From Shigella phage vB_1081, in the sequence record PV477269: 5,529 nt of DNA. One strand, given 5' to 3'. Below are positions 1 to 5,529 of the stretch, in pieces. The first letter of the stretch is position 1; each line of letters begins with the position of its first letter. The position numbers and the translations under genes were made by a program. The notes under the pieces are model-generated. The model saw nothing but the letters and a program-made list of their open reading frames with translations. It searched no databases and was not told where the DNA came from.

Positions 1-3
1 TGC

Positions 4-33
4 TTGACTAATACTCAATCGCCACTCTAATAT
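4..33 (+). promoter_or_regulatory. Candidate promoter PA in the H-A intergenic region
   Basis: -35 TTGACT at 4-9 (5/6), 18-bp spacer, -10 TAATAT at 28-33 (4/6). The predicted transcript start lies just upstream of GGAGG (48-52) and ATG 59. The upstream context is cut by the window edge, as the genome is circular. Confidence 0.45.
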
Positions 34-58
34 GCCTCCCATCAAACGGAGGCTTTTC

Positions 59-1723
59 ATGTTTAAAACTCATTCTGACTACTTTAACAAACCAAACATC
101 GACGCAATCAAACCACTCGTCGAAACTGCTGGTATGTCTGTTCTTACTCAGTCTCCAAACCTCCGCATCTGGAAACAGTGCAATACTCGTATCAAACTTC
201 TTGAAGAAATCCTTGCTCATTACACGAATGGTATCCGCCGTGATGATAATGGTGACTTCTGGATGAATCCAAACTCTCAACTTGCAACCACTATTGCCTA
301 TCGTGCCCACCAAAAAGGCCACAATCCTAAATTCAAACAATACCCAGAGTCGTTTACTCTGGATGACATTATTACTGGCAAACCAATCCCTCAAACCGCT
401 CCTGACGAATTACAACTCTCTGATGAAATCGGTGAAGACTACCGTCTTACAGTCCTCTCCATAATCGAAGAACTGCAGGAATGTTACGATGTGCTCGGAC
501 AACTTGATATTAATAACACTATAGACCACAAACCCCTCGGTAATACTCACTGGGACTTACTCTATGAAAAACCCGTATACAAACATTGGACTCAACTCGT
601 TTCAAAACGACCCCTTAAAGATATCCGCGCCGATTACAACTATGCAAAGGCGAAGGGTATTAAGGATGAATGCTCAAAAATCTTGGAGGAATCTACTATG
701 AAGTCCCGTCGTGGATTTACCGTCCAAAGATTGATGAATGCTATGCGTACAGCCCATACTCAGGGCTGGTATGTGGTATTCGACACTCTTACTCTAGCCG
801 ATGACCGCTTAAAGGATTTCTATGATAATCCCAATGCTCTTCGTGACTACTTCCGTGGTATTGGTCGTATGGTTCTTACTGCCGAGGGTCGTTCGGTGCA
901 TGAGTCATCTGCCGACTGCTATCAGTATTTTTGTGTGCCAGAGTATGGTACACAGCACGGTCGTCTACATTTCCACGCAGTGCATCTTATGCGCACACTT
1001 CCTTTGGGTTCTCTGGACCCTAACTTCGGTAAGCTGGTACGCACTAATCGGCAAATAAATAGCTTGCAAAACACGTGGCCTTATGGTTACTCTATGCCCA
1101 TCGCAGTCCGGTACTCCCAAGATGCCTTTTCTCGTGCTGGTTGGCTCTGGCCTGTGGATACAAAGGGTGAACCCCTTAAAGCTACCTCGTATATGGCTGT
1201 AGGCTTCTATGTTGCTAAATACGTTAATAAAAAATCAGATATTGACATGGCCGCAAAAGGCCTAGGGAATAAAGAATGGAACAATTCGCTCAAAACCAAA
1301 ATCAACCTCATACCCAAGAAGGTGTTCAGAATCCGAATGTCCCGCAACTTCGGAATGAAACTGCTCTCAATGGCTTACCTGTCAGCGGAAACCCTGATGG
1401 AACTGACCCAAGTGGGTTACGACGTGACCCCGTTCAACAACATCTTGAAGCAGAACGCCAAGAAAGAGCTCAGATTGAGGCTGGCAAAGAAATCTGTCGC
1501 CGACGTTTTGGAGGCGCAACCTGTGACGACCAATCTGCTAAAATTCATGCGCAATTTGACCCGAACAATCGGAGCGTCCAGCCTACAGAGTTTTATCGCT
1601 TCAATGACCACGAAATTATCAAGTACGGATATTTCTGATGAAACCAAAACTTACGTTGCTGATGCAGGAATTGCTGTTGCTAACTTACGAATTAAATCGA
1701 AGTGGACTGCTGGTGGAAAATGA
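59..1723 (+). CDS. A: Replication initiation protein A (rolling-circle HUH endonuclease); 554 aa from ATG 59
   Basis: ORF 32..1723 translates to a protein closely matching my recollection of phiX174/G4 gpA across most of its length. It contains the HUH motif ([14 protein letters not shown] codons 968-976) and the twin catalytic-tyrosine motif [10 protein letters not shown] (Tyr codons 1208-1210 and 1220-1222). The start is placed at ATG 59 because GGAGG at 48-52 sits 6 nt upstream and the resulting 554 aa equals the length I recall for G4 A; ATG 32 has no Shine-Dalgarno and overlaps a putative -10 box. Confidence 0.93.
500..529 (+). other. Origin of viral (+) strand rolling-circle replication (gpA recognition and nick site), inside gene A
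   Basis: Exact 30-nt sequence CAACTTGATATTAATAACACTATAGACCAC, identical to the conserved phiX174-family origin as I recall it. gpA nicks between the G and A of CAACTTG/ATATT, here between positions 506 and 507. Confidence 0.9.
698..1723 (+). CDS. A*: A* protein, in-frame internal restart of A (341 aa)
   Basis: In-frame ATG at 698-700 opening MKSRRGF, the same residue context as the phiX174 A* start. It is preceded by GGAGG at 685-689 (8-nt spacer). The 341-aa product equals the phiX174 A* length. Expression is inferred by homology only. Confidence 0.7.
1064..1093 (+). promoter_or_regulatory. Weak candidate for promoter PB inside gene A (upstream of B)
   Basis: TTGCAA at 1064-1069, 18-bp spacer, TACTCT at 1088-1093 (only 3/6 to the -10 consensus). 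It lies about 185 nt upstream of the B start, roughly where phiX174 PB maps. Sequence support is poor; listed only as a place to look. Confidence 0.2.
1276..1638 (+). CDS. B: Internal scaffolding protein B (120 aa), encoded in an alternative frame entirely within gene A
   Basis: The ORF translation (MEQFAQNQ...[10 protein letters not shown]...EFYRF...YGYF) matches recalled phiX174/G4 gpB, including the conserved C-terminal FGYF-type motif. It lies in a different frame from A, and its TGA stop (1636-1638) overlaps the K start in the sequence TGATG. Confidence 0.92.
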
Positions 1724-1808
1724 GGAAATTCAATCTCAACTTAAGAAACTCGAGGTCGTCTTACTTCGCAACCTTTCGCCATCATCTCAACGTGCTGGCA
1801 AAGACTGA
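1638..1808 (+). CDS. K: Protein K (56 aa), small non-essential membrane-associated protein overlapping the A/C junction
   Basis: Not in the supplied ORF track (under its length cutoff). Manual translation from ATG 1638 gives [56 protein letters not shown], ending at TGA 1806-1808. The central [16 protein letters not shown] block matches recalled phiX174 K, and the position (starting on the B stop, spanning the end of A and the start of C) is the same as in phiX174. Confidence 0.85.
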
Positions 1809-1974
1809 CGCCCTTGATGAGGAGAAATACCTGAATATGTTAGGTGCTCTCCTTAAGGACTGGTTCCGGTACGAGGAACATTTCGTACATGGTAAACAAT
1901 CAATGCTTGACATATTAAAAGAACGTGGCCTATTATCCACATCGTCAACTGACGCAAACCACAAAGGAAACTGA
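1720..1974 (+). CDS. C: Protein C (84 aa), ssDNA synthesis / packaging switch protein
   Basis: The translation from ATG 1720 ([58 protein letters not shown]...) closely matches recalled phiX174 gpC. ATG 1720-1722 overlaps the A stop TGA 1721-1723. The track ORF starting at 1702 is an upstream extension in the same frame. Confidence 0.92.
1907..1936 (+). promoter_or_regulatory. Candidate promoter PD (sigma70-type) inside gene C, driving D-E-J-F-G-H
   Basis: Perfect -35 TTGACA at 1907-1912, 18-bp spacer, -10 TATTAT at 1931-1936 (5/6 to TATAAT), about 40 nt upstream of the D start. This is the position where phiX174 has PD. Confidence 0.65.
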
Positions 1975-1975
1975 A

Positions 1976-2434
1976 ATGTCTAAATCAAATGAATCTGCTG
2001 TAGCTTTTCAAACTGCTATTGCTTCTATCAAACTTATCCAAGCCTCTTCCGTTCTCGATCTGACCGAAGATGACTTCGACTTCTTAACTCGCGACCGTGT
2101 ATGGATTGCTACCGACCGCTCACGTGCTCGCCGTGCTATTGAGGCCTGTGTGTATGGAACGCTGGACTTTGTCGGGTATCCTCGCTTTCCTGCTCCTGTT
2201 GAGTTTATTGCTGCCGTCATTGCTTATTATGTTCATCCCGTCAACATTCAGACGGCCTGTCTTATCATGGAAGGTGCAGAGTTTACCGAAAACATCGTTA
2301 ATGGTGTCGAACGCCCTGTTAAGGCCTCCGAACTGTTCGCCTTTACTCTTCTCGTTCGTGCCGGAAACAAAGACCTTATTGGTCATGCCGAAACAAACAT
2401 CCGTGAACAATTACGCGCTCAAGGAGTTATGTAA
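1976..2434 (+). CDS. D: External scaffolding protein D (152 aa)
   Basis: From ATG 1976 (MSKSNESAVAFQTAIASIKLIQAS...), with AAGGA at 1964-1968 as ribosome-binding site. Long stretches (VWIATDRSRARR, ACVYGTLDFVGYPRFPAPVEFIAAVIAYYVHPVNIQTACLIMEGAEFTEN) are identical to recalled phiX174 gpD. The 152-aa length equals phiX174/G4 D. The track ORF at 1925 begins with a GTG upstream extension. Confidence 0.95.
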   Translation: MSKSNESAVAFQTAIASIKLIQASSVLDLTEDDFDFLTRDRVWIATDRSRARRAIEACVYGTLDFVGYPRFPAPVEFIAAVIAYYVHPVNIQTACLIMEGAEFTENIVNGVERPVKASELFAFTLLVRAGNKDLIGHAETNIREQLRAQGVM

Positions 2435-2465
2435 TGAAAAAATCAATTCGCCGCTCCGGCGGTAA
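2154..2465 (+). CDS. E: Lysis protein E (MraY inhibitor), 103 aa as read here, nested in gene D in a different frame
   Basis: ATG 2154 opens MERWTLSGILAFLLLLSLLLPSLLIMFIPSTF..., an N-terminal transmembrane helix with the conserved Pro21 as in phiX174 E. The ORF continues past the D stop to TAA 2463-2465, 12 codons longer than phiX174 E (91 aa). The start is by homology; the Shine-Dalgarno is weak (GAGG 2141-2144). Confidence 0.85.
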   Translation: MERWTLSGILAFLLLLSLLLPSLLIMFIPSTFRRPVLSWKVQSLPKTSLMVSNALLRPPNCSPLLFSFVPETKTLLVMPKQTSVNNYALKELCNEKINSPLRR

Positions 2466-2511
2466 ATCTAAAGGTGCTCGCCTCTGGTATGTAGGCGGAA
2501 CACAATACTAA
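2434..2511 (+). CDS. J: DNA-binding / packaging protein J (25 aa, short G4-type form)
   Basis: Not in the ORF track (too short). ATG 2434-2436 overlaps the D stop TAA 2432-2434 (TAATG), with AAGGAG at 2421-2426 upstream. Translation MKKSIRRSGGKSKGARLWYVGGTQY is basic and carries the conserved GARLWYVGG motif of phiX174 J (..KGARLWYVGGQQF). Stop is TAA 2509-2511. Confidence 0.88.
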   Translation: MKKSIRRSGGKSKGARLWYVGGTQY

Positions 2512-2517
2512 TCTTTC

Positions 2518-2533
2518 GGGGGCTACGGCCCCC
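2518..2533 (+). terminator. J-F intergenic GC hairpin (candidate leaky terminator / mRNA-stabilising stem-loop)
   Basis: GGGGGC (2518-2523) / GCCCCC (2528-2533) form a perfect 6-bp GC stem around the tetraloop TACG (UACG in RNA), 7 nt after the J stop. There is no clean downstream U-tract (AATTTAAGG follows), so any termination would be partial, consistent with phiX174-family read-through terminators. Confidence 0.4.
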
Positions 2534-2551
2534 CAATTTAAGGATACAAAA

Positions 2552-3835
2552 ATGTCTAACGTTCAAACTTCTGCGGACCGCGTACCTCATGACTTATCTC
2601 ATCTCGTTTTTGAAGCTGGTAAAATCGGCCGCCTCAAAACTATCTCTTGGACACCTGTTGTTGCTGGTGACTCTTTCGAGTGTGATATGGTTGGTGCTAT
2701 TCGTCTGTCCCCTCTTCGTCGCGGCCTCGCTGTTGACTCACGTGTTGATATCTTTTCTTTCTACATCCCACACCGTCATATCTATGGTCAGCAGTGGATT
2801 AACTTTATGAAGGATGGCGTTAATGCCACCCCTCTCGCTCCTGTTACTTGTTCATCTGGCTGGGACTCTGCTGCGTATCTCGGTACTATTCCGTCCTCTA
2901 CGCTCAAAGTGCCTAAATTCTTACATCAAGGCTATCTGAATATTTATAACAACTACTTTAAGCCGCCTTGGTCTGACGACTTAACTTATGCTAACCCGTC
3001 CAATATGCCTGAACAGGATTACAAATGGGGCGTGCGTGTCGCTAACCTTAAATCTATCTGGACCGCACCACTGCCACCGGATACCCGTACATCTGAAAAC
3101 ATGACTACTGGTACATCCACTATTGACATTATGGGCCTACAGGCCGCATATGCTAAATTACACACGGAACAGGAACGTGATTATTTCATGACCCGTTATC
3201 GTGACATTATGAAAGAGTTCGGCGGACACACCTCTTATGATGGTGATAATCGCCCTCTTCTGCTTATGCGCTCTGAGTTCTGGGCTTCTGGCTATGACGT
3301 AGACGGTACTGACCAATCCTCACTCGGTCAATTCTCTGGTCGTGTTCAGCAGACCTTTAATCATAAAGTGCCACGCTTCTATGTCCCTGAACATGGCGTA
3401 ATCATGACTTTGGCTGTTACTCGTTTCCCGCCTACTCATGAGATGGAAATGCACTACCTTGTAGGCAAGGAAAACTTAACCTATACCGATATTGCTTGTG
3501 ACCCTGCGTTGATGGCTAACCTGCCTCCTCGTGAAGTGTCCTTGAAGGAGTTCTTCCACTCCTCGCCTGATTCTGCTAAATTCAAAATCGCAGAAGGCCA
3601 ATGGTATCGCACACAGCCTGACCGTGTTGCATTCCCTTATAACGCTCTGGACGGATTCCCGTTCTACTCTGCTCTCCCGTCCATGGAACTAAAAGACCGT
3701 GTACTGGTTAACACTGATAACTATGATGAAATCTTCCAGTCTATGCAGCTTGCACACTGGAACATGCAAACTAAATTTAACATTAATGTCTACCGTCACA
3801 TGCCTACGACTCGTGATTCAATCATGACCTCGTAA
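2552..3835 (+). CDS. F: Major capsid protein F (427 aa)
   Basis: Translation MSNVQTSADRVPHDLSHL...GRLKTIS.TPVVAGDSFE...LRLSPLRRGLA.DS.VDIF.FY.PHRH.YG.QWI.FMKDGVNATPL matches recalled phiX174 gpF (also 427 aa). AAGGA at 2540-2544 lies 7 nt upstream of ATG 2552. Confidence 0.96.
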   Translation: MSNVQTSADRVPHDLSHLVFEAGKIGRLKTISWTPVVAGDSFECDMVGAIRLSPLRRGLAVDSRVDIFSFYIPHRHIYGQQWINFMKDGVNATPLAPVTCSSGWDSAAYLGTIPSSTLKVPKFLHQGYLNIYNNYFKPPWSDDLTYANPSNMPEQDYKWGVRVANLKSIWTAPLPPDTRTSENMTTGTSTIDIMGLQAAYAKLHTEQERDYFMTRYRDIMKEFGGHTSYDGDNRPLLLMRSEFWASGYDVDGTDQSSLGQFSGRVQQTFNHKVPRFYVPEHGVIMTLAVTRFPPTHEMEMHYLVGKENLTYTDIACDPALMANLPPREVSLKEFFHSSPDSAKFKIAEGQWYRTQPDRVAFPYNALDGFPFYSALPSMELKDRVLVNTDNYDEIFQSMQLAHWNMQTKFNINVYRHMPTTRDSIMTS

Positions 3836-3846
3836 GGCAACAAAGG

Positions 3847-3887
3847 CCGCCCCTCTACTGGTCAGATGCCTGCCCAATGTGGGGCGG
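3847..3887 (+). other. Second stem-loop in the F-G intergenic region (possible auxiliary origin hairpin)
   Basis: CCGCCCC (3847-3853) is the perfect reverse complement of GGGGCGG (3881-3887), giving a 7-bp GC stem around a 27-nt loop. Position is consistent with the multi-hairpin G4 origin structure; function inferred. Confidence 0.4.
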
Positions 3888-3923
3888 ACCGTGCCTACGG
3901 AGATACCCGAATCTACGATACAT

Positions 3924-3949
3924 GGACGGCGTAGCCGCCGTCCCTACTG
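3924..3949 (+). other. Candidate complementary (-) strand origin: GC hairpin plus adjacent CTG primase initiation motif (G4-type, DnaG-dependent)
   Basis: 8-bp GC-rich stem GGACGGCG (3924-3931) / CGCCGTCC (3936-3943) with loop TAGC, followed immediately by CCCTACTG with CTG at 3947-3949. A primer copied from T3948 would begin pppAGUAGGGACGG..., which matches my recollection of the G4 primer. It lies in the 136-nt F-G intergenic region, where the G4 complementary-strand origin is located. Confidence 0.6.
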
Positions 3950-3971
3950 CAAAGCCAAAAAGGACTAACAT

Positions 3972-4505
3972 ATGTTCCAGAAATTCATTTCTAAGCACAA
4001 TGCTCCAATTAGCTCTACTCAGGTTACTGTTACTAAAACTCCGGCTGCCACGGCACCTGTTTTAGATGTGCCTGGCTTAAGCCGTTCTACTATTCAAATC
4101 AATGTAACAACCACAGCCGTTACAACTCATTCAGGCTTGTGCCACGTTGTTCGCATTGATGAAACAAACCCAACAAATCATCATGCTCTATCTGTTGCAG
4201 GTTCATTGTCGCATGTCTCTGCTGATATGATTGCTTTTGCTATTCGCTTTGAAGTCGCCGACGGCGTTGTTCCTACTGCCGTTCCGGCTTTATATGACGT
4301 TTATCCTATTGAAATTGTCAATACTGGCAAAGCAATCTCATTTAAAGACGTTGTGACTATTGATTCACATCCCCGCACTGTCGGTAACGACGTTTATGCG
4401 GGCATTATGCTCTGGTCTAATGCTTGGTCTGCCACTACTACCTCTGGCGTTCTCTCTGTTAATCAGGTAAACCGTGAGGCTACTGTTCTCCAGCCTTTAA
4501 AATAA
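3972..4505 (+). CDS. G: Major spike protein G (177 aa)
   Basis: Translation [10 protein letters not shown]...TAPVL...YDVYP...VTID..PRT.GN.VY.G.M.WSN...LQPLK matches conserved blocks of recalled phiX174 gpG. The 177-aa length matches what I recall for G4 G. AAGGA at 3960-3964 lies 7 nt upstream of the ATG. Confidence 0.93.
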
Positions 4506-4515
4506 GGATTATCCT

Positions 4516-5529
4516 ATGCTTGGTTCTGTCGTTGGTGGTATCGCCTCCGCTCTTGCCGGAGGTCTTACAGGTAAATTATTTGGCGGCGGTCAGTCCGCCA
4601 ATTCCACCGGAGTGCAAGGTGATATTCTTGCCTCTGACAACAATGTTATTGGTGCTAATGATGCTGGTATTAAATCTGCTATTCAGGGTTCTAGCCTCCC
4701 TAACTTTAAAGAGGCTGCCCCCTCTGCTATCTCTGGGATTCTTGCCGATTCTGGCAAGCATGCGCTCTCGTCTCTTACCAATGCTGGTACAAATAAACTC
4801 ATGGAAGCTGTCGGCCTTTCTAAGTCTGCCTCTGATAAGGGCAAGGATACAAAAGACTATCTTGCCGCCGCATTCCCCGAACTCAACGCATGGGAGCGCG
4901 CAGGTGCTGGTGCTTCTGGTGCAGGCATGCAAGATGCTGGCTTCCAAAATCAGAAAGAGCTAACCAAGATGCAGCTTGACAATCAAAAGGAAATCGCTAA
5001 GATGCAGAACGAAACTCAGAAGGAAATCGCTGGGCTTCAATCTATCACTTCACGCGAAAATACTAAGGACGCTGTCTATGCTCAAAATGAAATGCTCGCG
5101 TATAACCAAAAAGAGAGTATGTCACGCGTTGGCGCTATTCTCGAAAACACAAGCCTCACCAAACAACAACAAACTTCTGAAATTATGCGGCAGATGCTTA
5201 CTCAGGCTCAGACCACGGGTCAGCATTTTACAAATGAGCAAATCAAGGAGCTTACGCGAAAAGTTGGTGCTGATATTGATGCTGTTCGTGCTAACACTGA
5301 ACGCACCCATGTAGAAACTGACCGCTCAAAACAGGAGGTTCAAAACTCCCGTTACGCTTCCTCGCAGTTAGGCAAAACCGCTAAGGACGTTTCCAATGCA
5401 ATTACTGATACAGCTAGTTCTATTGTTGATTATTTTCGTGGTGTTGATCAAAAAGTGGCAGACGTTTACAACAACTATTTCAAAGATGGCAAATCGAAAG
5501 GAATAGAATCCAATCACCGTTCCAAATAA
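4516..5529 (+). CDS. H: Minor spike / DNA pilot protein H (337 aa)
   Basis: Translation ..[10 protein letters not shown]...KLFGGGQ...[11 protein letters not shown]...[24 protein letters not shown]...[32 protein letters not shown]...[15 protein letters not shown]...[26 protein letters not shown] is near-identical in blocks to recalled phiX174 gpH. The 337-aa length matches my recollection of G4 H. AAGGA at 4504-4508 overlaps the G stop; the ORF ends with TAA at the window end. Confidence 0.95.
4951..5049 (+). repeat. H: Three tandem 33-nt (11-codon) coding repeats within gene H
   Basis: Consecutive units [11 protein letters not shown] / [11 protein letters not shown] / [11 protein letters not shown] at 4951-4983, 4984-5016 and 5017-5049. 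The 12-mer AAGGAAATCGCT recurs exactly at 4987-4998 and 5020-5031, and AAGATGCAG recurs at 4966-4974 and 4999-5007. Confidence 0.6.

Follow-up and report, generated by a model that had tools for sequence, protein, structure and literature searches.

Gene Content and Coding Layout

The window, the whole 5,529-nucleotide stretch of DNA from Shigella phage vB_1081 (sequence record PV477269) that was analyzed, contains 11 genes, A, A*, B, K, C, D, E, J, F, G, and H. All of them lie on the plus strand, start with ATG, and are free of internal stop codons.

59–1723, plus strand: gene A, rolling-circle replication initiator, 554 amino acids (Pfam Phage_GPA, 203 bits)
698–1723, plus strand: gene A*, in-frame internal start in A, 341 amino acids
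1276–1638, plus strand: gene B, internal scaffolding protein, 120 amino acids, in another frame within A (Pfam Phage_B, 165 bits)
1638–1808, plus strand: gene K, 56 amino acids, spanning the A/C junction (Pfam Protein_K, 61 bits)
1720–1974, plus strand: gene C, DNA maturation and packaging switch, 84 amino acids (Pfam Phage_C, 132 bits)
1976–2434, plus strand: gene D, external scaffolding protein, 152 amino acids (Pfam gpD, 277 bits)
2154–2465, plus strand: gene E, lysis protein, 103 amino acids, in D and extending 32 nt into J (Pfam Microvir_lysis, 55 bits)
2434–2511, plus strand: gene J, DNA-binding core protein, 25 amino acids (Pfam Microvir_J, 61 bits)
2552–3835, plus strand: gene F, major capsid protein, 427 amino acids (Pfam Phage_F, 565 bits)
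3972–4505, plus strand: gene G, major spike protein, 177 amino acids (Pfam Phage_G, 121 bits)
4516–5529, plus strand: gene H, DNA pilot/minor spike protein, 337 amino acids (Pfam Microvir_H, 457 bits)

The coordinates of all 11 genes are identical to those annotated in the record of phage NC6 (DQ079907.2), which is also 5529 nt long, and all ten distinct proteins exceed the Pfam gathering scores. This agrees with an earlier sequence-only reading, which had described eleven genes in canonical order on a single strand. The nested overlaps place B in A, K across A and C, and E in D, and the stop codon of D overlaps the start codon of J as TAATG (positions 2429–2440 read ATGTAATGAAAA). The non-coding DNA (positions 1–58, 1975, 2512–2551, 3836–3971, and 4506–4515) amounts to just 245 nt, or 4.4%, and carries homologues of known elements, so that all of the DNA is explained, as the same reading had stated.

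The proteins are 92–100% identical to those of phage ID52 (NC_007825/DQ079877), which has the same gene order and the same D/J overlap. The D, E (103 residues), K, J, and G proteins of the two phages are identical; K and D are also 100% identical to those of NC6, D is 99.3% identical to that of G4 (NC_001420), the type of the clade, and J is the same in G4, ID52, and NC6. The G protein is 97.2% identical to that of NC6, 88.7% to that of G4, and 41.8% to that of phiX174 (NC_001422). Identity to ID52 is 99.1% for gpA (95.3% to G4), 96.7% for B, and 99.5% for F, and the coordinates of gene A are as annotated in ID52, NC6, and G4. The H protein is 99.4% identical to those of both ID52 and NC6 and 92.6% to that of G4. 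It has alanine at residue 47, as in ID52, whereas NC6 carries the Val-47 allele (Knies et al.). The C protein is 98.8% identical to that of NC6 but only 92.0% to that of ID52, where a 9-nt insertion private to that phage, together with changes clustered near the 3′ terminus of the gene, yields a protein of 87 rather than 84 residues. The lytic activity of ID52 gpE, which is 100% identical to gpE of the window, has been demonstrated by experiment (PMC9311611).

The lengths of A, A*, B, K, C, D, J, F, G, and H are the same in G4 as in the window. However, G4 has a 43-nt spacer between D and J that is absent from the window, where the two genes overlap, and its E protein has 96 residues, in contrast to the J-overlapping 103-residue protein of the window (67% identity).

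The mechanically defined open reading frame for A opens at an ATG at position 32 and would encode 563 residues; the length of 554 corresponds to the annotated start at 59, which is used by all reference records.

Replication Origins

Two sequences corresponding to microvirus replication origins are present.

500–529, plus strand: viral (plus) strand origin, 30 nt, recognized and cleaved by gpA, in gene A
3836–3949, plus strand: predicted G4-type origin of the complementary (minus) strand, with three stem-loops and a primase CTG, in the F-G spacer

The viral strand origin is an exact match at 30 of 30 positions, with no chance matches expected. The identical 30-mer occurs at positions 4299–4328 of phiX174, in whose record 4306 is given as the viral-strand origin. 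By homology, gpA is predicted to nick between G506 and A507.

The stem-loops in the F-G spacer occupy positions 3836–3895, 3898–3917, and 3924–3943 and are followed by the primase start CTG at 3947–3949. Across the spacer (3836–3971), the mean column identity among the window, ID52, NC6, and G4 is 98%, and the CTG is invariant. Folding of the spacer as single-stranded DNA gives three predicted hairpins (z = −3.9). The origin is base-for-base identical to that of ID52, and it has the architecture and primer start of the G4 origin, although stem-loop I has a loop shorter by one nucleotide than that of G4. The G4 record annotates an RNA primer at the position homologous to the CTG of the window; the predicted primer is AGUAGGGACGGCGGCUACGCCGUCCAUG in the window and AGUAGGGACGGCGGCUUUCGCCGUCCAU in G4. 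The published description of the G4 origin, with three stem-loops followed by 5′-CTG-3′, agrees with this arrangement (PMC6783573). The conserved sequence and fold thus predict that the F-G spacer is a primase-only origin of complementary strand synthesis. phiX174 uses a PriA-dependent primosome assembly site and is not known to have a G4-type primase origin.

Promoter-like Sites and Hairpins

Three further elements resemble transcription signals.

1–58, plus strand: H-A intergenic spacer, with a pA-like promoter-like site and a GC hairpin
1907–1936, plus strand: pD-like promoter-like site in gene C
2518–2533, plus strand: GC hairpin in the J-F spacer, GGGGGC-TACG-GCCCCC

A consensus scan of the H-A spacer identified a pA-homologous site with a −35 element TTGACT (4–9) and a −10 element TAATAT (28–33), as well as a terminator-like GC hairpin (34–53) followed by TTTTC, with a folding energy of −11.3 kcal/mol (z = −3.7). 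The spacer shows a single-base difference, G21, in comparison with ID52, NC6, and G4, and it is 58 nt long in G4 as well. The TTGAC and GCCTCC...GGAGGCTTTT blocks of the spacer are also conserved in phiX174. From what is known of phiX174, the two elements may act as promoter and terminator. The pD-like site consists of TTGACA and TATTAT separated by 18 nt (11 of 12 positions match) and is likewise a putative promoter. The J-F hairpin has a folding energy of −14.9 kcal/mol but is weakly distinguishable from shuffled sequences (z = −1.9); by analogy with phiX174 and G4, it is presumed to be a terminator after J or an mRNA-stabilizing hairpin. No Rfam family matched the window.

Alternative Reading Frames in Gene H

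The 5′ half of gene H contains two long open reading frames in alternative frames.

4520–4963, plus strand: +1-frame open reading frame in H, 147 amino acids, TTG start, open in the window
4576–4947, minus strand: antisense open reading frame in H, 123 amino acids, open in the window

They could be taken for an undescribed twelfth microvirus gene. The antisense frame, the one for which openness across the clade was tested directly, is uninterrupted in all eight genomes (the window, ID52, NC6, G4, ID12, ID8, NC10, and NC2), and the H gene of phiX174 also has long stop-free stretches in the +1 frame (205 codons) and the antisense frame (183 codons). However, an antisense stop-free stretch as long as the longest one here (133 codons) is matched by 15% of shuffled genomes. 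The third-codon variability of H peaks in this region, with 16–17 variable sites per 150 nt compared with 5–13 further downstream, which indicates that synonymous change is not suppressed. The translations in the alternative frames have identities of 0.75–0.78 to G4, compared with 0.89 for H, and so diverge faster. In phiX174, 71 of 82 conserved cryptic open reading frames have been disrupted jointly. Microvirus transcription, as established for phiX174, is known from one strand only. No signal of selection was seen on the long alternative-frame open reading frames of H, and a hidden gene at this position is very unlikely. The window is an ordinary genome of an already known G4-clade type, and the earlier view that it holds no novel system stands.

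Genome Identity and Relatives

The sequence-only reading had proposed a BLASTN comparison, with best matches in a different Microviridae clade as the outcome that would speak against a G4-like genome. The comparison gave full-length, collinear matches to G4-clade genomes at 92.0–98.7% identity, and the top matches all belong to this clade. Identity to ID52 is 98.6–98.7%, with 71 substitutions and one 9-nt indel that is private to ID52; identity to NC6 is 98.2%, with 101 substitutions and no indels. The identities to ID12, WA6, ID8, and NC10 are 93–94%, and that to G4 over the full length is 92.0%. As judged from pairwise identities to eight G4-clade genomes (92.0–98.7%), the window, ID52, and NC6 form a tight subclade, 98.2–98.7% identical among themselves and 92–94% identical to the remaining G4-clade genomes compared. 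By sequence, the closest kin of the window is therefore the ID52 and NC6 sublineage, with G4 proper more distant. The length of 5529 nt, which had been described as near that of G4-like genomes (about 5.5 kb), is shared with NC6, ID12, WA6, and NC10; ID52 has 5538 nt and G4 has 5577 nt.

The gene set and order, the 30-nt viral-strand origin, and the TAATG overlap of D and J are the same in phiX174, and an assignment to the phiX174 type (Sinsheimervirus) or the alpha3 type (Alphatrevirus) instead of the G4 type was considered on the ground of this shared 11-gene architecture and origin. phiX174, however, has 5386 nt, and its proteins are 42–83% identical to those of the window, with different lengths for A, C, E, J, G, and H. 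The lengths of A (554), J (25), G (177), and H (337), which the sequence-only reading had taken to fit the G4 lineage, are exactly those of G4, ID52, and NC6, whereas phiX174 has 513, 38, 175, and 328 residues. The phiX174-type records fall in a band of 60–80% BLASTN identity, and the F-G spacer carries the conserved G4-type origin described above. The genome identities and the protein identities and lengths all favor the G4 clade; the phiX174- or alpha3-type assignment is refuted, with practically no probability left to it.

The gene set and order, nucleotide identity, protein lengths, F-G primase-type origin sequence, and 30-nt gpA origin of the window are all those of Gequatrovirus, and on sequence grounds its taxonomic place is in this genus, among the phiX174-type microviruses (Bullavirinae). 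In ICTV practice for phages, a genome is placed in a species when its nucleotide identity to the exemplar is 95% or higher over the whole genome. The window is 98.7% identical to NC_007825 across 100% of its length, which is above this threshold for the species Gequatrovirus ID52, and at 92.0% identity to G4 it is below the threshold for Gequatrovirus G4. The window almost certainly represents a lytic coliphage of the G4 clade, a strain of the species Gequatrovirus ID52, whose circular single-stranded DNA genome it covers in one complete turn. The circular and single-stranded form would follow from the biology of G4 and phiX174. As a member of Gequatrovirus, the phage would package this genome in a T=1 capsid and infect Enterobacteria.

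The exact sequence of the window is absent from every collection searched (best match, 98.6–98.7%), and no exact record of its gpA was found in these collections. The window is a strain variant that is new at the sequence level, ∼1.3% from ID52 and 1.8% from NC6. A search of 5,426 complete Escherichia coli genomes found no copy, in keeping with a lytic phage that does not integrate.

Relationship to ID52 and NC6

Instead of forming a simple third lineage, the window could have arisen by recombination between an ID52-like and an NC6-like parent, as a mosaic of the two. Among the 101 columns at which ID52 and NC6 differ (including nine from the ID52 insertion), the window matches ID52 at 60, NC6 at 39, and neither at two. 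It appears NC6-like at approximately 1818–2083 and ID52-like at 1–880, and its shared derived states conflict, nine being common to the window and ID52 and eight to the window and NC6. When the columns were polarized with five outgroup genomes, however, 47 of the 60 ID52-like columns proved to be changes private to NC6; of the 39 NC6-like columns, 30 were private to ID52, the 9-nt insertion included. The apparent blocks are thus due to private patches in the two relatives, at the 3′ end of gene C in ID52 and in the 5′ part of gene A in NC6 (where NC6-private changes cluster in 109–439), and not to patches of the window itself. Shared derived sites number only nine and eight and lie scattered, a pattern compatible with a near-trichotomy and homoplasy. 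A mosaic origin is therefore unlikely.

Completeness and the End-to-start Junction

The window begins within the H-A spacer and finishes on the stop codon of H (TAA, 5527–5529), as noted earlier, and this linearization point, immediately past the H stop codon, is a conventional coordinate. When the end is joined to the start, the junction reads ...CCAAATAA|TGCTTGAC....

Bases of the H-A spacer might have been lost at the ends of the window, for example by assembler trimming, which would make the genome near-complete. The G4-clade records in GenBank have one common start coordinate and thus give no independent evidence on the junction, and exact junction-spanning patterns had no matches in IMG/VR and JGI metagenomes. 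The empty IMG/VR scans are uninformative, because IMG/VR has just two G4-clade contigs, of 5538 and 5577 nt, the sizes of ID52 and G4. The independent evidence on the junction consists of a Logan contig and the phage lillemer. The contig, a permuted circular relative, was independently assembled with a different start point; its ends repeat over 30 nt, and it closes to a circle of 5528 nt. The joined end and start of the window align base-for-base, as a collinear stretch, with the interior of this contig, with no indel at the H-to-A junction, and the sole indel between the two across the genome is a single nucleotide at 3957. In lillemer, the H-A spacer is 58 nt, as in the window (63 nt in phiX174). 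The window also equals four circular 5529-nt records in size and is collinear with them. Together with the contig and the lillemer spacer, these records lead us to expect no extra sequence between positions 5529 and 1, and there is very little probability that bases are missing. The earlier wording, complete or near-complete, can thus be refined to complete by homology, on which both the circularity and the completeness of the molecule would rest.

Proposed Life Cycle and Significance

The analysis directly supports the identity of the sequence, the intactness of the genes, the family assignment of each protein, and both origins as present and conserved. Each biochemical step of the life cycle is modeled here on the biology of G4 and phiX174. 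Host SSB would coat the incoming viral strand everywhere but at the three F-G origin hairpins, and host DnaG primase would start primer RNA synthesis at position 3948, the T of the CTG. Pol III would next make the double-stranded replicative form, and gpA would nick the 30-nt origin in its own gene (506|507) and drive rolling-circle synthesis. gpC may then turn replication toward packaging, in which single strands enter, along with gpJ, procapsids made of F, G, and H and the scaffolds B and D, and gpE would bring about lysis.

The window is a textbook G4-clade microvirus genome whose annotation is complete and conventional, and it reveals no new biology. It adds one strain-level data point on the natural diversity of an experimental-evolution lineage, whose uses include thermal-adaptation studies (ID52 and NC6) and the production of bacterial ghosts with ID52 protein E.

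Comparison with known phages

Megablast of the full window against 50,697 phage records (INPHARED release August 2025) identified ID52 (5538 nt) as the closest relative, matched end to end in one piece at 98.6% identity. NC6 (DQ079907.2; 5529 nt) was also matched end to end in a single piece, at 98.2%. The remaining G4-clade coliphages are 92.7–93.7% identical to the window, and 185 records, phiX174-type phages among them, fall in the 60–80% band. Pairwise values from a MAFFT alignment are listed below; the largest indel relative to G4 reflects a 43-nt D-J spacer, which G4 has and the window lacks.

Differences between the window and three G4-clade phages (MAFFT)
ID52: 71 substitutions, one 9-nt indel, 98.7% identity
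NC6: 101 substitutions, no indels, 98.2% identity
G4: 440 substitutions, five indels, 92.0% identity

The sequence-only reading had described a G4-like microvirus with the full phiX174-family gene set and had proposed BLASTN against G4-like and phiX174 genomes as a check. The full-length G4-clade matches and the 60–80% identity of the phiX174-type phages bear this out, confirming the observation and supporting the interpretation. The exact sequence of the window is absent from the collections searched, the phage records included, its closest match being ID52 at 98.6–98.7%; it is a strain-level variant. An exact-protein look-up found no identical protein on record for its gpA, and a search of complete E. 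coli genomes with the window gave no matches.

Gene content

The complete phiX174-family gene set lies on the + strand of the window. Gene coordinates were carried over directly from the annotations of the reference records (ID52, NC6, and G4), and they are exactly those of NC6.

Genes of the window
59–1723, +, gene A
698–1723, +, gene A*
1276–1638, +, gene B
1638–1808, +, gene K
1720–1974, +, gene C
1976–2434, +, gene D
2154–2465, +, gene E
2434–2511, +, gene J
2552–3835, +, gene F
3972–4505, +, gene G
4516–5529, +, gene H

Every gene starts with ATG and contains no internal stop, and each distinct protein scores above the Pfam gathering score for its own microvirus family. Amino acid identities are 92–100% to ID52, 95–100% to NC6, 67–100% to G4, and 42–83% to phiX174. 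The protein lengths quoted earlier as typical of the G4 lineage (A 554, J 25, G 177, H 337) are the same in G4, ID52, and NC6, whereas those of phiX174 are 513, 38, 175, and 328.

The mechanical ORF of gene A opens at an ATG at position 32, which is in frame and would add 9 residues to give 563 amino acids. This ATG is situated between a −10-like hexamer and a hairpin, and phiX174 retains it as ATGCCTCC. Because its phiX174 counterpart precedes the annotated start of the pA transcript (3962), the annotated A start at 59 (554 amino acids) seems sensible, and ATG 32 is probably off the A mRNA.

In the D/J/E region (2420–2465), D and J overlap as TAATG, as in phiX174; since the 43-nt spacer of G4 is missing, the overlap is formed and E extends to 2465. 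The window E is a 103-residue lysis protein whose last 32 nucleotides are shared with J. ID52, NC6, ID12, and NC10 are annotated with this layout as well, whereas G4 and NC2 have a long D-J spacer and a 96-residue E; in ID8 a 5-nt spacer gives an intermediate form.

Codon 47 of H (GCT, 4654–4656) encodes alanine, the ID52-type allele. The A47V polymorphism in H has been linked to improved growth at high temperature; NC6 falls on the hot-adapted side and ID52 on the cold-adapted one (Knies et al. 2006).

Replication origins and other cis elements

Non-coding sequence amounts to 245 nt (4.4%), at 1–58, 1975, 2512–2551, 3836–3971, and 4506–4515. An exact copy of the 30-nt gpA origin is present at 500–529. 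The identical 30-mer is found in phiX174 at 4299–4328, a stretch that includes the annotated viral-strand origin (4306); the gpA nick in the window is predicted between G506 and A507.

The F-G spacer has a mean column identity of 98% among the window, ID52, NC6, and G4. As single-stranded DNA it is predicted to fold into three hairpins (3836–3895, 3898–3917, and 3924–3943; z = −3.9), and an invariant CTG at 3947–3949 is situated 3′ of them. At the G4 complementary-strand origin, DnaG initiates at the T of a CTG located 3′ of three stem-loops (PMC6783573), and the window spacer has this published architecture. In the G4 record, an RNA primer is annotated at the counterpart of this position, and the predicted window primer differs from that of G4 solely in the hairpin loop.

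The H-A spacer is one base apart from those of G4, ID52, and NC6. Promoter- and terminator-like sites are cited here where they are homologous to known phiX174 or G4 elements, and knowledge of those phages suggests their putative roles.

Promoter- and terminator-like sites of the window
H-A spacer, in a block common to phiX174: promoter-like site, TTGACT-18-TAATAT
H-A spacer, in a block common to phiX174: GCCTCC/GGAGGC hairpin followed by a T run
40 nt upstream of D: promoter-like site, TTGACA-18-TATTAT, 11 of 12 consensus matches
J-F spacer: GGGGGC/GCCCCC hairpin

Consensus scans of the window showed no enrichment over shuffled sequences for either promoters (12 versus 9.0 ± 3.1) or terminators (7 versus 4.7 ± 2.1), and Rfam returned no families in the window at E ≤ 1. 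Every structural feature has a prior description and annotation in the records of ID52 and NC6, two phages credited to Rokyta et al. 2006 by Knies et al.

Probable closure of the circle

When the window ends are joined, the H-A junction reads ...CCAAATAA up to position 5529 and TGCTTGAC... from position 1. A 600-nt query spanning this junction was compared with the phage records. Nearly all G4-clade records begin at the coordinate of the window and therefore split the query into two, which provides no test of the junction; lillemer, deposited in a different permutation, was alone in crossing it. In lillemer the distance from the H stop to the A start is 58 nt, the same as in the window.

A second permuted genome was reached among Logan assemblies through an exact D protein. 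This contig (DRR845691_66607, from run DRR845691; 5558 nt) carries a 30-nt terminal direct repeat, implying a circle of 5528 nt. Identity to the window is 94.2%, with a single indel genome-wide (1 nt, at 3957). Its sequence differs from the window near the H-to-A junction, through which it is collinear with the joined window ends. Given the lillemer spacing and this collinearity, the H-A nucleotides would, by homology, all be present in the window, with none missing from the spacer. The exact 27-nt junction pattern had no matches in IMG/VR or the JGI metagenome contigs. A positive control located just two G4-clade contigs in IMG/VR, matching ID52 and G4 in length (5538 and 5577 nt), so these negatives carry no information on the junction.

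Alternative reading frames

An antisense ORF at 8–394 (128 amino acids) was rejected as a chance occurrence, as it contains a stop codon in six of seven relatives (NC6, G4, ID12, ID8, NC10, and NC2). In the 5′ half of H, two further frames are free of stops: a +1 ORF at 4520–4963 (147 amino acids) and an antisense ORF at 4576–4947 (123 amino acids). Comparison of eight G4-clade genomes showed the antisense ORF to be open in every one, the +1 ORF is open in the window, and the same two frames are long and without stops in phiX174 H.

Hidden genes in these frames were rejected, as there is no signature of constraint. Third-codon positions of H vary most in this region, with synonymous change unsuppressed, and divergence is faster in the alternative-frame translations than in H itself. 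The longest antisense stop-free stretch is equalled in 15% of shuffled genomes. In phiX174, joint disruption of 71 of 82 conserved cryptic ORFs caused a fitness loss of ~50% that was wholly suppressed by one point mutation modulating gene H expression, and protein from the cryptic ORFs was undetectable (PMC6883844). The openness in H looks compositional. The lack of constraint, the shuffle frequency, the phiX174 precedent, and the stops in the 8–394 ORF of the relatives agree with the earlier view that the window has no room for an undescribed system.

Proposed life cycle

Based on G4 and phiX174 biology, the viral strand would be primed at the F-G origin by host SSB and DnaG, and Pol III would then finish the replicative form. 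The gpA nick at 506/507 would drive rolling-circle replication, and gpC and gpJ would act with a procapsid of F, G, and H, plus scaffolds B and D, to package single strands. Cell lysis would be carried out by gpE. The window E is 100% identical to that of ID52, which lyses E. coli and Salmonella experimentally (PMC9311611).

Relationship to ID52 and NC6

The window groups closely with ID52 and NC6; the three are 98.2–98.7% identical among themselves and 92–94% identical to G4, ID12, ID8, NC10, and NC2. Before sites were polarised, the window looked like a mosaic of ID52 and NC6. Polarisation with five outgroups showed that most "NC6-like" sites are changes private to ID52, including its 9-nt gene C insertion, and most "ID52-like" sites are private to NC6, leaving 9 versus 8 shared derived sites. 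A mosaic was therefore dropped as the main explanation; these counts point to a near-trichotomy and make a poor case for the window being recombinant. In NC6, the 5′ part of gene A (109–439) has a dense cluster of private derived sites (~18), and ID52 has a private patch at the 3′ end of gene C (~1923–1993) comprising the 9-nt insertion and clustered substitutions. Both are possibly segments imported into those phages, not into the window.

Gequatrovirus comprises three species in the NCBI taxonomy (G4, ID52, and talmos). The usual species threshold is 95% identity. The window shares 98.7% identity with the ID52 exemplar and 92.0% with G4, so by this rule it is a strain of Gequatrovirus ID52. 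NCBI places NC6 in Gequatrovirus G4, but its identity is just 91.7% to G4 and 98.3% to ID52, and it looks misfiled at the species level. ID12, ID8, and NC10 are likewise placed under Gequatrovirus G4, to which they are 95.2–95.4% identical. The Logan contig has ID12 as its top match among the 50,697 phage records (94.8%); slightly below the species line against all known phages, it may represent an undescribed species-level Gequatrovirus lineage.

Relative to ID52 and NC6, 39 polarised substitutions are private to the window and are spread genome-wide (e.g. 85, 283, 400, 421, 892, and 5268). Viral-strand C>T accounts for 22 of the 39, followed by T>C (7), A>G (5), and G>A (3). We interpret the C>T excess as a probable consequence of cytosine deamination, which would be expected to bias a genome of single-stranded DNA in this way.
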